NCBI GenBank assembly: GCA_001603685.1
Contig: LUZO01000043.1
Coordinates: forward strand, 1 to 43,585
Length of the DNA stretch: 43,585 nt
Source: Bacteroidales bacterium Bact_23
Lineage (GTDB): Bacteria; Bacteroidota; Bacteroidia; Bacteroidales; Lentimicrobiaceae
Reading direction: 5' to 3'
Below, in pieces: positions 31,598 through 43,584 of the stretch. A program made the translations under genes and the position numbers. The notes under the pieces are model-generated. The model saw only the letters and a list, made by a program, of their open reading frames with translations, was not told where the DNA came from and did no database searches. Positions within the stretch are counted from its first letter, which is position 1. Each line of letters begins with the position of its first letter.

Positions 31598-33034
31598 ATG
31601 ATATTTACACCTGAAAAATGCCGCATTCCGGATCAGAGGATGAAGCCTTTTATCGATCCTGATGAATTGTGGGACATCCTGAATGAAACTAAACCGGATA
31701 AACAGGCAGTCCGCGATGTGATTGCCAAATCGCTTGAGAAAAACAGGCTGACCCTCAGGGAGACAGCCATGCTGATCAATGCCAACGACCCTGAACTGAT
31801 TGAAGAGATTAAGGAAGGTGCCCGCGAGCTGAAGAAGCGCGTTTATGGTAACCGTATTGTGTTGTTTGCTCCGCTTTACATCGGAAATAAATGCACCAAC
31901 AACTGCAAATACTGCGGATTCAGGGCATCGAACAAGGAGGCCATCCGCAAAACCCTGACCGACCAGGAGATTGTGCGCGAGGTTGAGGCGCTGGAAGATA
32001 ACGGCCAGAAGCGCCTTATCCTCGTTTACGGCGAACATCCCGAATACAATGCCGAATACATTGCCGATAATGTAAGGCTGGTGTACGGAATCAAGAAAGG
32101 TCCGGGCGAAATCCGCAGGGTAAACATCAATGCCGCTCCTCTCGATATCGACGGATTCCGTATCGTGAAAGAGGCCGGCATCGGCACCTACCAGATTTTC
32201 CAGGAAACCTACCACCCCGAGATTTACAAAACCTACCATCTGGGCGGCAAGAAAAGGGATTTCAACTACAGGCTCACTTCGCTCGACCGTGCTCAGGAAG
32301 CCGGCCTCGACGATGTGGGAATCGGCGCTTTGTTCGGACTGTACGACTGGCGCTACGAGGTAATGGGCCTCATCCGCCACACCAACCATCTGGAAGCCTG
32401 CTATCATGTCGGTCCGCACACCATCTCCTTCCCGCGCATTCAGAACGCCTCAATGCTTGATCTTGGGAAAGATTATACGGTTAACGACGAAGATTTTGCA
32501 CGGCTGGTTGCCATTCTCAGGCTTGCAGTCCCCTACACCGGTATGATTCTTACGGCAAGGGAGAATCCCAAACTCAGGCACGAAGTAATTCAGTTCGGCG
32601 TATCGCAGATCGACGGCGGCACCAAACTGGAGCTGGGCGCCTATTCCGACTCGCTGAATCAGGAGCAGGACCTCAACCGCGAGCAGTTCCAGATCAACGA
32701 CGACCGCTCACTCAATGAGGTAATCGATGAGCTCCTCGAAAACGATTACCTCCCATCCTTCTGCACCGCATGTTACCGCCGTGGCAGAACCGGTGAGCAC
32801 TTCATGGAGTTTTCGGTTCCCGGATTCATCAAGCGCTTCTGCTCACCCAATGCCATGCTTACCCTGGCCGAATACCTCGAAGACTACGCTCCCGCCGATA
32901 CAAAAGCTGCCGGATGGAAGGTAATCGAAAAGAACCTGAACGACCTGCGAGAGCAAACCGATGAGAAAAATGCAGCCGAACTGAAAAGCAGACTCGACAG
33001 GGTGAAGGCAGGCGAACGCGACATCTATTTCTGA
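31598..33034 (+). CDS. hydG: [FeFe]-hydrogenase H-cluster radical SAM maturase HydG
   Basis: FAPLYIGNKCTNNCKYC, FQETYH, GPHTISFPR, C-terminal SFCTACYR..RTG..FC auxiliary-cluster motif. Confidence 0.95.
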   Translation: MIFTPEKCRIPDQRMKPFIDPDELWDILNETKPDKQAVRDVIAKSLEKNRLTLRETAMLINANDPELIEEIKEGARELKKRVYGNRIVLFAPLYIGNKCTNNCKYCGFRASNKEAIRKTLTDQEIVREVEALEDNGQKRLILVYGEHPEYNAEYIADNVRLVYGIKKGPGEIRRVNINAAPLDIDGFRIVKEAGIGTYQIFQETYHPEIYKTYHLGGKKRDFNYRLTSLDRAQEAGLDDVGIGALFGLYDWRYEVMGLIRHTNHLEACYHVGPHTISFPRIQNASMLDLGKDYTVNDEDFARLVAILRLAVPYTGMILTARENPKLRHEVIQFGVSQIDGGTKLELGAYSDSLNQEQDLNREQFQINDDRSLNEVIDELLENDYLPSFCTACYRRGRTGEHFMEFSVPGFIKRFCSPNAMLTLAEYLEDYAPADTKAAGWKVIEKNLNDLREQTDEKNAAELKSRLDRVKAGERDIYF

Positions 33035-33059
33035 TTCATCACGACTTAATTAACAGGAT

Positions 33060-33317
33060 ATGAAAGAAACCAGAATCATCGGACTACTCATCAGAGATAG
33101 GATTAAAGAAGCAGGTAAACTGCAGCTCGCCCTGAACAAATACGCTCACCTGATAAAATCAAGGCTCGGTTTTCATGAGCTGAGCGAAGACACATGCAGC
33201 AGAATGGGTTTCATCATTCTTCAGCTTACCGGTAAAAGTGATGAATGGCAAGCCTTTGAAACCGAGATTTCAGAAATTGGCGGAGTAGAAATGCAGAAAA
33301 TGTCGTTTGAACTTTAA
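33060..33317 (+). CDS. Small ACT-like hydrogenase-associated protein (TM1266-like), copy 1
   Basis: IIGLLIRDR..LQ.AL..Y..IKSRLGFHE..G.IIL pattern; directly after hydG. Confidence 0.7.
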   Translation: MKETRIIGLLIRDRIKEAGKLQLALNKYAHLIKSRLGFHELSEDTCSRMGFIILQLTGKSDEWQAFETEISEIGGVEMQKMSFEL

Positions 33318-33329
33318 TACGAAAACAAA

Positions 33330-33587
33330 ATGAAAAGGCGTATTCTTGGCATCAATGTGGGCAACCGTGACGAAGTTGCCGAAAAAGTTCAAAAGGTGCT
33401 GACTACTTTTGGCTGCTCCATTCGCACCCGTCTCGGACTTCATGAAACGGATGACGACCACAGCGAACCGGGCGGATTGATTCTGCTTGAGCTGATCGGC
33501 GATGAAAACGAATGGAACAAGCTCGAAAAAGAGCTTTCAGCCATTGAGCACTGCGAAACAAAAAGAATGGATTTCAGCGGAAAGTGA
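33330..33587 (+). CDS. Small ACT-like hydrogenase-associated protein (TM1266-like), copy 2
   Basis: ILGINVGNR..VQKVLTTFGCSIRTRLGLHE..GLILLEL; paralog of the previous ORF. Confidence 0.75.
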   Translation: MKRRILGINVGNRDEVAEKVQKVLTTFGCSIRTRLGLHETDDDHSEPGGLILLELIGDENEWNKLEKELSAIEHCETKRMDFSGK

Positions 33588-38994: not shown

Positions 38995-40854
38995 CTATAT
39001 CTCAATATCGAGATTCAACTGGTTTTTCAGCAGAATAATATCCGGATTCTCCTCAGCCAGCCGCTGGAACTTCTCTTTTCCGGAATAAGGCATTTTGACT
39101 GTTATCGTTTGTTCTTCAACGGTAACTTCAAGGGTTATCCCCCAGTTTTTCAATTCTTTGCGCAGACGCTCCAGAATCCCCGGCCGGTTTGCAACAAGTT
39201 CTCCTTCCTGAATTTTGTTGCCCACAGCCACCTGAACCCTGTAATCGTCATTTACCTGCGGTATTCTGAATGCCATGGTATTGGACAAACTGGGCGACTC
39301 TTCTTCAAAGGAGGCCGCCACTGTTTTCCAGGCCGCCTCCAGCCTTGCCTGACTAAAAGCTTCCCGGTCCGGTGGCAGTTTCTCCCCCGCCACTCCCGCT
39401 GGCTCGCTGCTCTCTTCGGCTTTGGCTGCGCCGCCGGTTTTCATCAGATCGCCAACATTGATGCCGGTAAATGAACTTTTCTTTTCAGCCGGTTTTTTCT
39501 CTTCTTCTGCCGGTTTCTGATAAGTTGTTTCCGGCTCGGCTGCCCGGTTTGCCGGCTGTGGTTCCGGCACCGGAACCGGCTGCTGAATGGGTATCACCGG
39601 TGTTGGCTCCGCTTTTGCCTGAGGCTCAACCGGAGGCTGAGGCCGAACCTGAGCAGGGGGCTGTACGGGTTGCTGTGCCGGTGGCTGAGCAGCAGTTGCC
39701 GGCTTTTCAGGCATTTTGGCCGCGACGGGCGCTGCTGCCGGATTGGACGGCGGCTGAATCGGCGAAGCCAGATTGCAAAGCTGCAGCATAGCAATTTCAA
39801 GGTGAAGCCGCTTGTTGTTGCTGATCTTATAGTTCAGGTCGCACTCGTTGGTTATGGTGAGTGCCTTCAGCAGAAAAGCGGGATGGCACGATTGAGACTG
39901 CTGAAGATAGAGGTTACGGATGTTTGCACTGGTTTCGAGCAGGTTAACCGTTTCAGGATCACGGCTTACCAGCAGGTTGCGGAAATGCTCGCCCAGTCCC
40001 GTAACAAAGTGCTGGCCGTCGAAACCATTGTCGAGCACCTCATTTACAAGCAACAGCGTCTGGCTCACATCGCCCTGAAGAATGTAACTGGTGACTTTGA
40101 AATAATAGTCGTAATCAAGCACATTCAGGTTTTCGATCACCTGGCTGTAGGTAAGCTCATTTCCGGCAAAACTTACCAGCTGATCGAACATGGAGAGGGC
40201 ATCGCGCAGACCGCCATCCGCTTTCTGAGCTATGATGTGGAGCGCATCCGGATCGGCTGTAACCTGCTCGCTCTCAGCCACCCAGGCAAGGTGATGGGCG
40301 ATATCCTCCACCCCTATCCTGCGGAAATCGAACACCTGGCAACGCGAAAGAATGGTGGGCAGAATTTTATGCTTCTCCGTAGTGGCAAGAATGAACTTGG
40401 CATAAGCGGGCGGCTCTTCCAGCGTTTTCAGAAACGCATTGAAGGCTGCCGTTGACAACATGTGCACCTCATCGATGATATATACCTTGTATTTTCCCGT
40501 TTGCGGCGGAATGCGCACCTGCTCAACCAGGCTGCGGATATCGTCAACCGAATTGTTCGAAGCGGCATCAAGTTCGTAAATATTGAATGAAGAGGATTTA
40601 TTGAACGATACGCACGATTCGCACTGATTGCAGGCTTCGCCTTCGGGTGTCAGAGCCGTGCAGTTAATGGTCTTGGCCATGATACGGGCGCAGGTGGTCT
40701 TCCCTACCCCCCGCGGACCGGTAAATAAAAATGCCTGTGCAATCTGGTTGTTGCGGATTGCATTCTTCAGGGTATTGGTAATCGACGGCTGTCCGATAAC
40801 GGTGGCAAAGGAAGCCGGGCGGTATTTTCGGGCTGATACAATAAAATTATCCAT
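38995..40854 (-). CDS. dnaX: DNA polymerase III subunit gamma/tau
   Basis: Start ATG 40854 (SARKYRP); GPRGVGKTT, zinc Cys, ELDAASN, IDEVHML, KTLEEPP; Pro/Gln/Ala linker; TAAGTTTG -7 box at 40882-40889. Confidence 0.95.
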   Translation of the reverse strand: MDNFIVSARKYRPASFATVIGQPSITNTLKNAIRNNQIAQAFLFTGPRGVGKTTCARIMAKTINCTALTPEGEACNQCESCVSFNKSSSFNIYELDAASNNSVDDIRSLVEQVRIPPQTGKYKVYIIDEVHMLSTAAFNAFLKTLEEPPAYAKFILATTEKHKILPTILSRCQVFDFRRIGVEDIAHHLAWVAESEQVTADPDALHIIAQKADGGLRDALSMFDQLVSFAGNELTYSQVIENLNVLDYDYYFKVTSYILQGDVSQTLLLVNEVLDNGFDGQHFVTGLGEHFRNLLVSRDPETVNLLETSANIRNLYLQQSQSCHPAFLLKALTITNECDLNYKISNNKRLHLEIAMLQLCNLASPIQPPSNPAAAPVAAKMPEKPATAAQPPAQQPVQPPAQVRPQPPVEPQAKAEPTPVIPIQQPVPVPEPQPANRAAEPETTYQKPAEEEKKPAEKKSSFTGINVGDLMKTGGAAKAEESSEPAGVAGEKLPPDREAFSQARLEAAWKTVAASFEEESPSLSNTMAFRIPQVNDDYRVQVAVGNKIQEGELVANRPGILERLRKELKNWGITLEVTVEEQTITVKMPYSGKEKFQRLAEENPDIILLKNQLNLDIEI

Positions 40855-41043: not shown

Positions 41044-43107
41044 TCAAAGCTTTATATCCTGGGGGCTGGTTATTTCAATCAGGTTGGCGGATTCTTTAAA
41101 ATCAACCCCGGCCAATGGGTCATATTCTTTGAACTTATCAAATGCAAGTCCTGTCAGGCTGGCTATTTTCTGTATAGGCAACTGATAAGTTTTAAACTGC
41201 CCGAAGCCATCTTCCCGTATTCCTTCTGCTATTCTGAAATCTTCAATATTATCAGGTTGTTTTAGCATATAACCGGTTACCGACGGCTCCCCGTTTTCCT
41301 TGATTACTGCAGCCACTTTCCAGAACTCCAGCGGCAAAAGCACGCCACGGTAGGGAATATCATCCTCGCTAAAAACGGGGCCGGTAAATACGGAAACCTT
41401 AACTCCTTCCTTTCCGGCATTTTTCAGGATATAATCTTCCAGGCTAAGCCAGGTTTTCCGGTTAAGGTTCATATGCTGCGGAGCAGAGTTCGTAAAATGG
41501 AAGGTATCATCATTTGCAGCATCCGCATTGGCACCCCAAACCGGATCGAGTCTCCGTACCATATGGCCACGGTCCAGATCGTTTTTATCATACACCTCCG
41601 GCCCGGTCTGGTATTTCTCATCCATTCTCGGATCAAGAATCCATTTTGTATTTTCCCGTTTATTGCTTTCCAGCTTCTCTCCATGGATATTCACCGCCGT
41701 CAGGACACATAATTTACGGTGTTTATGAATGGCTACTGAAAAATTGAAGTAGTGTAAGAGATGCTTATTCTTTGATGTCGGGTTACAGATCGGGGCTAAA
41801 ACATCTGCCTGCTTTTTTACCAGGTCTTCAATCTTTATCCTGAATTTGGATGTTTTAACAAAGCTTGCATCGTAACCCTTGCGGTCGCCATACTTCTGAT
41901 TCACTGCAGGATCAATTGTGTAGGAGGTTTTCTGTTCTTCTTCAATTGCCGTAAAATTGCCTGCACTTAACTGCAGTCCGCTTCCCAACCCAACCGAGAT
42001 TTCCAGAGGTATGTGAAATGTAATTTTGTTGTTAATTATGGATATAAGTTTCCTGCCATCAATATTTTTCGGGTCAAAAATCAGCGACTGTCCCGACACT
42101 GTATCGTCAGCCTTAAAGGCCGGCAGTGTAAATATCTCATTTACAAGACTATTTGGCATATTATTGCTTTTTAAATCCGCCAGAATGGCACTAATATTTA
42201 TTCCTTCGTTCGAAATCCAATCAATAAATGAATCATCCATGCCTGGCTGAAAAACACCCCCGTCCTTGCATAAATAGTTACCGTTGTCATCCTTTTTAGG
42301 AACACCGCTATGGTGCAGCGCCACTACCTGCCACTGATCATTAAACACGGGCGAACCGGACGACCCCTGAGCAGTATCAGTCATATAGGTAATATAGTTC
42401 TCATCTTTGGTTAAAACCTCATTTTCCCTGATGGCTATTTGTTTATAACCGCCACCCGGATGCTGGATTATGGAAACAAACTCAGAAACCACAACTGTAT
42501 TCCGTTCTTCAGAAAGCTTCAAATATCCAAACTCACTGATGCTCCGATTTCTGGTTTTCGAGGTAGATTTAATTGCAACAACAGTGTAATCAAGTTCTGC
42601 ATTTGTGTAGAAGTACTTTTCCGGATCAAGATCGAATAATATGCTGGTTGCTGGGGTTCCCTTCAGGTTATATTCATAATTGAACTCGGCAAAACTGTTC
42701 GCTGCAGACCCGCTATCCGCAAGTATATGGTTATTTGTCAGTAATAAATCAGGAGTTATCAAAAAGCCGGTGCCATACCCTTCATTACCTCCTTTAATGT
42801 TTTTAACATGTATTCTGCAAACAGCTCTGGAAGCTATATAACCCAATGTCAGGTAATTAATGCTCACCAAATCATTATTGCCGATAATTCTCTCTTTTGC
42901 AAAATCAAAAGGTTCGGCTTTGTTTACCGAAAGAGTGCCTAACCTTTCATTTAGATTTCTTTCTCTTTCCTCCTTCTTTAACTTTTCTTCCTTCTTTTGT
43001 GCTTCCAACGAACTGTCGGTTGCCGTTTTTTCGGTAAAAGCCATCCTTTCTATTGGACTTTGACGCCTTTCCGTCTTTTCAATAAAATCCAGATTAAATA
43101 GTTTCAT
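41044..43107 (-). CDS. Trypsin-like serine protease fused to a DNA/RNA non-specific (NucA/EndoG-type) endonuclease
   Basis: GTGFLI, LTNNH, LDY, GSSGSPV (His-Asp-Ser triad); C-terminal DRGHM, NSAPQ..LN..W..LE, P.EFWKV; no signal peptide. Confidence 0.88.
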   Translation of the reverse strand: MKLFNLDFIEKTERRQSPIERMAFTEKTATDSSLEAQKKEEKLKKEERERNLNERLGTLSVNKAEPFDFAKERIIGNNDLVSINYLTLGYIASRAVCRIHVKNIKGGNEGYGTGFLITPDLLLTNNHILADSGSAANSFAEFNYEYNLKGTPATSILFDLDPEKYFYTNAELDYTVVAIKSTSKTRNRSISEFGYLKLSEERNTVVVSEFVSIIQHPGGGYKQIAIRENEVLTKDENYITYMTDTAQGSSGSPVFNDQWQVVALHHSGVPKKDDNGNYLCKDGGVFQPGMDDSFIDWISNEGINISAILADLKSNNMPNSLVNEIFTLPAFKADDTVSGQSLIFDPKNIDGRKLISIINNKITFHIPLEISVGLGSGLQLSAGNFTAIEEEQKTSYTIDPAVNQKYGDRKGYDASFVKTSKFRIKIEDLVKKQADVLAPICNPTSKNKHLLHYFNFSVAIHKHRKLCVLTAVNIHGEKLESNKRENTKWILDPRMDEKYQTGPEVYDKNDLDRGHMVRRLDPVWGANADAANDDTFHFTNSAPQHMNLNRKTWLSLEDYILKNAGKEGVKVSVFTGPVFSEDDIPYRGVLLPLEFWKVAAVIKENGEPSVTGYMLKQPDNIEDFRIAEGIREDGFGQFKTYQLPIQKIASLTGLAFDKFKEYDPLAGVDFKESANLIEITSPQDIKL

Positions 43108-43440: not shown

Positions 43441-43584
43441 CTAATCAAATATCCTATCCTTGCCTATCATATCCTTAATGTTCTCAGTATGCCTGGTTTG
43501 AATTTCTTTGTTGGCCCCATTTTCAACGGCCTTTTGTAAAACACTCAGCATTTCTTCTTTATATGAATAATGGATTGGCTCATT
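43441..43584 (-). CDS. Probable 3' end of an upstream gene (partial, function unknown)
   Basis: Open minus-strand frame from the window edge: NEPIHYSYKEEMLSVLQKAVENGANKEIQTRHTENIKDMIGKDRIFD-stop (TAG at 43443-43441). Confidence 0.45.
   Translation of the reverse strand, partial: NEPIHYSYKEEMLSVLQKAVENGANKEIQTRHTENIKDMIGKDRIFD

Follow-up and report, generated by a model that had tools for sequence, protein, structure and literature searches.

This locus raises the question of why a protease and a nuclease should be joined in a single chain, and whether the one might control the other. The window analysed is the whole contig LUZO01000043.1 of Bacteroidales bacterium Bact_23 (43,585 nucleotides), its end lying 478 bp beyond the start codon of the gene, on the upstream side. 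The gene is real and intact, was gained recently, and belongs to a family that has been predicted but hardly tested. Judged from its sequence, the product is probably a self-processing pro-nuclease keyed to glutamate; given that chemistry, a role in cell death or conflict is likewise probable by association, and there is an even chance that the two hold together. The parts of the protein are located as follows.

41044..43107, minus strand: trypsin-like protease fused to a NucA/EndoG-type nuclease, 687 aa (open reading frame and Pfam)
42892..43107, minus strand: helical N-terminal region, residues 1–72, a predicted propeptide ending in Glu72 (42892–42894)
42127..42891, minus strand: V8/Spl-like serine protease, residues 73–327 (Pfam, Foldseek and alignment)
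42727–42729, 42589–42591 and 42358–42360, minus strand: codons of the catalytic triad, H127, D173 and S250
42373–42375 and 42313–42315, minus strand: codons of the S1 pocket residues T245 and H265 (alignment to solved structures)
41983..42045, minus strand: beta motif of the linker, residues 355–375, including ITFHIPLEISV (AF2 strands)
41935..41943, minus strand: candidate protease/nuclease release site E389–E391, in a disordered segment
41122..41910, minus strand: NucA/EndoG His-Me finger nuclease, residues 400–662, with DRGH at 41563–41574
41461–41463 and 41437–41439, minus strand: codons of the nuclease residues N549 and E557
41203..41256, minus strand: loop C, acidic and flexible with low pLDDT, residues 618–635, with Glu628 at 41224–41226
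41047..41121, minus strand: C-terminal tail D, residues 663–687, with Glu672 at 41092–41094

Both domains are recognized by Pfam, as Trypsin_2 (residues 112–264, E 8e-23) and Endonuclease_NS (residues 442–657, E 2e-43). A preliminary description had noted a complete triad and a DRGH site in one chain, and the family bears this out: in an alignment of 173 fused homologues (the query, 119 from the homologue search and 53 from fetched loci) H127, D173 and S250 are invariant, and D512, G514, H515, N540, N549 and E557 of the nuclease are each kept in 173/173. The absence of a signal peptide, also noted, agrees with the N-terminal sequence. No export signal is found by hydropathy, the highest 15-residue hydropathy within the first 45 residues being −0.28, and Cys is absent from the first 40; a hydrophobic N terminus occurs in just one of the 173 fused homologues. 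Strain variation in the gene amounts to 13 silent codons and 8 residue changes, with none at the catalytic residues or the proposed sites. In the AF2 models both domains are folded and their mutual arrangement is not fixed (pTM 0.53 and 0.56). The best Foldseek matches are FAM111A, Esp, V8 and the Spl proteases, followed by EndoG. Human FAM111A, a dimer-forming trypsin-like protease, is the top match of the protease (model m347979726833); the likeness is at the level of the fold only, with 22–23% identity. PADLOC and NCBIfam gave partial matches confined to the protease domain (RT-Protease_XI, LmuA and PDC-S45 in the case of PADLOC), and no catalogued PADLOC defence-system model matches the protein over its full length.

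Cleavage after glutamate is the predicted specificity of the protease. In the solved structures of V8 and the Bacillus glutamyl endopeptidases, Thr190 and His213 are the counterparts of T245 and H265, which are present in 171 and all 173 of the fused homologues, respectively. Thr190 and His213 are named as S1 elements of glutamyl endopeptidases in a review, where His213 is also described as common to Gln-specific proteases (PMC5508998). The fold, the pocket and the position of the mature N terminus are shared with V8, Esp and BIGEP; these are however secreted single-domain enzymes, whereas the present protein is fused to a nuclease and lacks an export signal.

AF2 places helices at residues 6–20, 33–61 and 67–74 of the N-terminal region. 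Residue 2 of mature V8 protease is matched by I74, which puts the propeptide junction at E72|R73; E72 and R55 are found in 171 and 167 of the 173 fused homologues. The Streptomyces griseus enzyme is described as processing itself at Glu(−1) (PMC5508998), and E72|R73, at the position of the V8 mature N terminus, is the predicted site of self-cleavage here. E72 lies within a confidently modelled helix, so cutting at this point would require local unfolding. No second protease of the same type was found in this genome, where Trypsin_2 exceeds the cut-off at three places: this gene, a 488-aa frame that we read as DegP-like, and a secreted-type protein. Elsewhere the same protease domain is joined to endonuclease I, EEP, GDSL lipase or lipoxygenase.

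Within the nuclease, E628 in loop C (site C) and E672 in tail D (site D) are the predicted gating cut sites. Both lie in segments of low AF2 confidence and are conserved and covarying, with Glu672 nearly invariant in 116 sequences. The sites were compared between 180 protease-fused and 128 protease-free nucleases (one truncated row left out), using residue-calling rules written post hoc, after the sequences had been seen; the fused set includes seven members with a divergent protease (one unrecognised by Pfam) and one fragment, and the protease-free, or solo, class includes fragments and split genes. Among the fused proteins site C is Glu in 157 and Arg or Lys in none, and site D is Glu in 170 and Arg or Lys in six. 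Among the protease-free proteins Arg or Lys occupies C in 71, D in 82 and both in 61, and the proteins with basic residues at both fall in five clades made up of solo nucleases only. The residue following the site stays small, E-G/S/A being replaced by R-G/S or K-A/G/D, which fits a change of P1.

The same glutamates might never be cut, and could be acidic, DNA-mimicking or structural dampers of the nuclease, with the protease-free forms having taken basic residues to bind DNA. Acidic inhibitors are known for NucA-type enzymes, loop C is strongly acidic, and replacement of Glu by Arg or Lys is equally expected of a charge switch. Phylogeny-aware tests are weak, with 3.4 of 6 independent pairs changing the same way and none oppositely for C with D (median p 0.125, not significant), and p of 0.5–1 for solo versus fused state with site (not significant, with few events). 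We nevertheless consider damping by charge improbable. Neither six other Glu-rich columns nor the net charge of the nuclease core shifts between fused and protease-free forms, the small following residue is retained, E72 is distant from the nuclease, at a junction known for processing, and other replacements accompany other fused proteases (C25-type).

A second set of sequences comprises 140 of 141 new 50%-cluster representatives (one truncated row left out). Glu is present in both windows in 94/100 members with an intact His213 protease versus 29/40 without, and in neither window in 0/100 versus 5/40 (Fisher p 0.001, with lenient windows and kinship not corrected for). All 100 of the intact His213 proteases have Thr or Ser at 190. 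In P0391, where the trypsin-like region is without a catalytic motif, both site glutamates are lost. As separate observations, P0334, P0377 and P0386 have a C25-like region and no trypsin, with no Glu in loop C and Asp in the tail; their C25-like relatives P0326 and P0358 also hold a trypsin domain and keep the loop Glu. The members of a large clade (L027:1123-2190, P0136-P0188) begin with a transmembrane segment, after which come basic residues, and their sites are occupied by Arg/His.

The linker element ITFHIPLEISV (residues 362–372) had been described as conserved-looking. It is a real motif but not a universal one, occurring in 77 of the 173 fused homologues. AF2 strands at 355–358, 361–366 and 368–373 (pLDDT about 54–65) suggest a small beta-meander, predicted with moderate confidence, which may be an unnamed interaction module. 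An Atlas search with the linker gave no usable match. The motif is also seen in a trypsin–endonuclease I fusion, an archaeal fusion and the N termini of solo nucleases (L142:1258-3441, L022:8016-9041, L091:8106-9194, L161:256-2394). Ten protease-free nucleases bear it at the N terminus, none of them in the Arg/Lys clades; they may have split off recently, or may act in trans while tethered to a separate protease. Beyond the linker motif, E389–E391 is the weakest of the proposed cut sites. A Glu lies 5–13 residues ahead of the nuclease start in 155/164 fused proteins versus 49/79 basic-site solo nucleases, and where close relatives have the aligned Glu, this protein has D399.

Taken together these features suggest a sequence of events. 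The protease would first activate itself at Glu72, and would then cut near Glu389–391, Glu628 and Glu672, by which the nuclease would be freed and switched on. The freed nuclease would destroy the DNA of the same cell, making the protein a stand-alone death or conflict effector. Candidate triggers are the conserved helical N terminus (R15, R55) and clustering via the linker motif. Protease-gated activation of the nuclease, as earlier proposed, is supported by the Glu-type S1 pocket and the matching glutamates; we infer the Glu specificity, each of the cleavages, inhibition of the uncut nuclease and its toxicity.

The surroundings of the protease-free nucleases fit a change of protease partner for those with basic sites. 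Caspase genes are present in 4/9 Arg/Lys-type solo loci versus 2/56 fused loci, where the caspase profile was built from the caspases of those four loci (Pfam confirms three of them), a single archaeal family accounts for four of the nine, and site C of L095 is ambiguous. The nucleases adjoin or lie near caspase (Peptidase_C14) genes in both archaea and bacteria (L169:6135-8227, L061:6719-11887, L167:5034-6886, L095:7977-12343), the L167 caspase being split over two frames in the record. Metacaspases cut after Arg/Lys, and these may possibly be caspase-activated EndoG-like pairs. A Glu-type solo nuclease (L158/L168) adjoins a Glu-type protease gene, located 10 bp upstream in L168, and the Lys-type locus L063 has a trypsin-like gene without His213. 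The protease domain is matched in 0/5 genomes with Arg/Lys-type solos and in 3/4 with Glu-type or unclear solos, all being incomplete genomes. One genome with a Glu-type solo encodes caspases as well, and caspase presence per genome does not separate the Glu from the Arg/Lys types. In a search of the family Saprospiraceae 2/151 genomes have a match, with a caspase beside the nuclease in neither. A wider reading, which we hold only tentatively, is of a widespread, sensor-less, single-chain death module in which an EndoG-like nuclease is shut by two self-cut segments, the sites being re-keyed from Glu to Arg/Lys at each hand-over to a caspase-type protease. Such nucleases would make up a further protease-gated family, independent of the known one, with prokaryotic metacaspase–EndoG pairs from bacteria and archaea among its members.

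Protease gating is already in print as a prediction for the NucA-trypsin conflict system (‘System 3’ of Kaur et al. 2020), a trypsin–NucA core, fused or separate, for which proteolytic deployment was proposed (PMC7159879). The present gene shares both core features, an intact Endonuclease NS and a fused trypsin-like peptidase, and the core is also described without EAD1. The published system is mostly alphaproteobacterial, often with TM, EAD1, S8 or STAND partners, whereas none is present here in the protein or the reconstructed insertion; in the published account such accessories (EAD1, TM, S8, STAND with a death-like domain) occur in subsets only, and its section 32 gives neither protease specificity nor cut sites (PMC7159879). 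No open-access report of Glu specificity or of these cut sites was found, and supplements may list family members. What is new here is the glutamyl-endopeptidase pocket, the proposed mechanism at the level of sites and the proposed re-keying from Glu to Arg/Lys. The system has been an untested prediction since 2020, and in the only protein of such architecture to have been tested the nuclease seemed idle; predictions for individual residues (P1 = Glu; E72, about E390, E628 and E672) make the whole family testable.

The closest parallel to the gating itself is found in the metallo-beta-lactamase (MBL) pro-nucleases, which trypsin-like or caspase partners switch on by cutting twice within flexible loops (PMC12799240, PMC12642450). 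As described there, HamM, Avs1 and Canu have two flexible nuclease segments with conserved protease sites, and trypsin-like and caspase-like partners are swapped; our protein would work likewise, with putative sites in its two segments. However, they have an MBL fold, separate genes, Ile/Gly sites and a protease fused to a phage sensor, whereas the present protein has a His-Me finger fold, one chain, Glu sites and no sensor. The words ‘NucA’ and ‘endonuclease’ are absent from the main texts of both reports. If the paired switch from Glu to Arg/Lys marks a change of partner, then a second nuclease fold shows co-evolution between cut sites and protease partners. If true, caspases and EndoG-like nucleases, both components of eukaryotic cell death, would also be paired in prokaryotes. 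In comparison with Anabaena NucA–NuiA there is no export signal here, and a NuiA search matched neither this genome nor any control genome. No link to a protease-activated nuclease of Streptomyces was found in the literature.

LypC of Caulobacter LypABC resembles this protein by description, with an N-terminal trypsin-like peptidase, a flexible linker, a C-terminal NucA-like endonuclease and a similar length, and it too lies outside defence islands (PMC13236601). According to that report S296 of the peptidase is essential and lysis is unaffected in nuclease mutants. By extension the protease here could be the working effector on other cell targets, signalled by a partner elsewhere in the genome, the nuclease being secondary. 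We judge this very unlikely, since the nuclease catalytic residues are conserved in 173/173 fused homologues and the nuclease persists alone in many lineages. Moreover LypC needs the CARD protease LypA and the NLR ATPase LypB (PMC13236601), but no sensor, NLR or CARD partner is present at this locus, nor was a candidate found in the 97.9% complete genome. No NLR/STAND ATPase is found at the locus, and an AAA_16 search of the genome (677 contigs) gave weak P-loop matches, 2/17 of them over the cut-off and one of these being clpB. The CARD-NLR anti-phage operons described by Wein et al. also include trypsin-fused effectors, but they comprise three or four genes with a CARD protease and an NLR, and the effector tested was a phospholipase–endonuclease (PMC10312443).

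The preferred role, in death or conflict, is the best guess by association, based on conflict-type operons and the other effectors carried by the same protease. A minority of family members lie in conflict-type STAND/EAD/CHAT operons, with an EAD5-trypsin and AAA_16 ATPases in L091, a trypsin and an NLR-sized ATPase in L171, and CHAT-AAA proteins in L031 and L035 (Rhodococcus). Killing of phage-infected cells would be a plausible function. The specific suggestion of abortive infection fared less well, in view of the lack of a sensor or partner at the locus, the dispensable LypC nuclease (PMC13236601) and the surroundings of the homologues. Around 53 fused loci PADLOC gave no defence-island signal: 13/191 ORFs match at E≤1e-8 (with crude ORF calls and no background control), and in nearly every case the match is to a generic domain (subtilase, kinase, ABC or AAA ATPase, helicase). 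No partner gene is shared among 80 homologous loci, and the neighbours are mostly metabolic or unrelated genes. S8 subtilase genes were observed beside the fusion in five loci (L030, L055, L066, L070 and L179); recurrence of S8 is noted for the NucA-trypsin system (PMC7159879).

Such neighbourhoods would also suit the same self-cutting chemistry put to another use, the disposal or recycling of DNA when cells lyse under stress, in stationary phase or during development, or once lysis has released the protein, and not directed against invaders. Many homologue hosts are soil, filamentous or spore-forming taxa, a homologue on a Bacillus plasmid lies among peptidoglycan-binding, SpoIID and S8 genes, no match was found in 50,697 phage records, and LypABC is reported to serve programmed lysis for release of gene transfer agents (PMC13236601). 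Against this, the protease domain bears many other effector domains, several members are in STAND operons, and a very patchy distribution with recent insertion suits conflict genes; we consider DNA disposal rather unlikely.

The distribution is indeed patchy. The fusion is present in 0/38 same-genus genomes, and 8/400 genomes of the phylum match at E≤1e-30, three of them over the full length. Matches occur in 80 plasmid records, 29 at 80% coverage or more; a pattern scan of viral contigs found none, and a metagenome scan gave one locus. The gene was described as richer in AT than its neighbours dnaX and clpB, and the GC profile agrees: its GC content is 41.7% (GC3 42.4%), compared with 52.4% for dnaX, 53.5% for clpB and 48.2% for the genome, placing it at the 5.5th percentile for GC and the 7th for GC3 among 1576 long ORFs. 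Horizontal gain, also part of the preliminary description, is supported by the patchy distribution, including its absence from the same-genus genomes, and by the insertion site, which is flanked in the window as follows.

38995..40854, minus strand: dnaX, a host core gene, the downstream flank of the insertion
43441..43584, minus strand: last 47 codons of an upstream 347-aa TM-SH3-TM-NERD protein (P0122)

Of 29 dnaX loci from the genus, 20 have a T9SS plug gene no more than 1.5 kb away, usually about 130 bp upstream, and in this genome the plug gene is on contig C446. The T9SS genes point to a Bacteroidota host. Contigs of three other runs bridge the window and C446, with a gap of 2010–2011 bp, and the start of P0122 is at the end of contig C346 (L138:1052-1170), preceded by a lipoprotein-like gene that matches no Pfam family. 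Members of the P0122 cluster are on contigs equal in length to the bridging ones. The bridging contigs and the genes of C346 thus indicate an insertion of roughly 5 kb and three genes between the plug gene and dnaX. The start of C346 (L138:1-20) we take to be Nextera adapter sequence, an assembly artefact. In the reconstructed insertion there is neither an ATPase nor a second protease, nor a conserved gene of inhibitor size. An NLR/CARD partner beyond the contig end was considered and dismissed, the gap consisting of the lipoprotein gene and the SH3-NERD gene. These two were considered as conserved partners and rejected, having no match in the other fetched loci save one SH3 hit; P0122 has no match in the 38 same-genus genomes save one SH3 hit, and none in PADLOC. 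Flanking repeats, promoters and terminators occur at chance level only. In RNA run X17 the gene, dnaX and intergenic DNA are covered alike, so this run carries no information on expression. At L132:1730-1736, on the outer margin of the insertion, run X14 is interrupted, leaving a loose end to either side with 7 bases of overlap, the pattern expected of an insertion element. Elsewhere in the window (31598–33587) a radical SAM/BATS gene is followed by two small TM1266-like genes; we read this as an iron-only hydrogenase maturation cluster in which the radical SAM/BATS gene is HydG-like.
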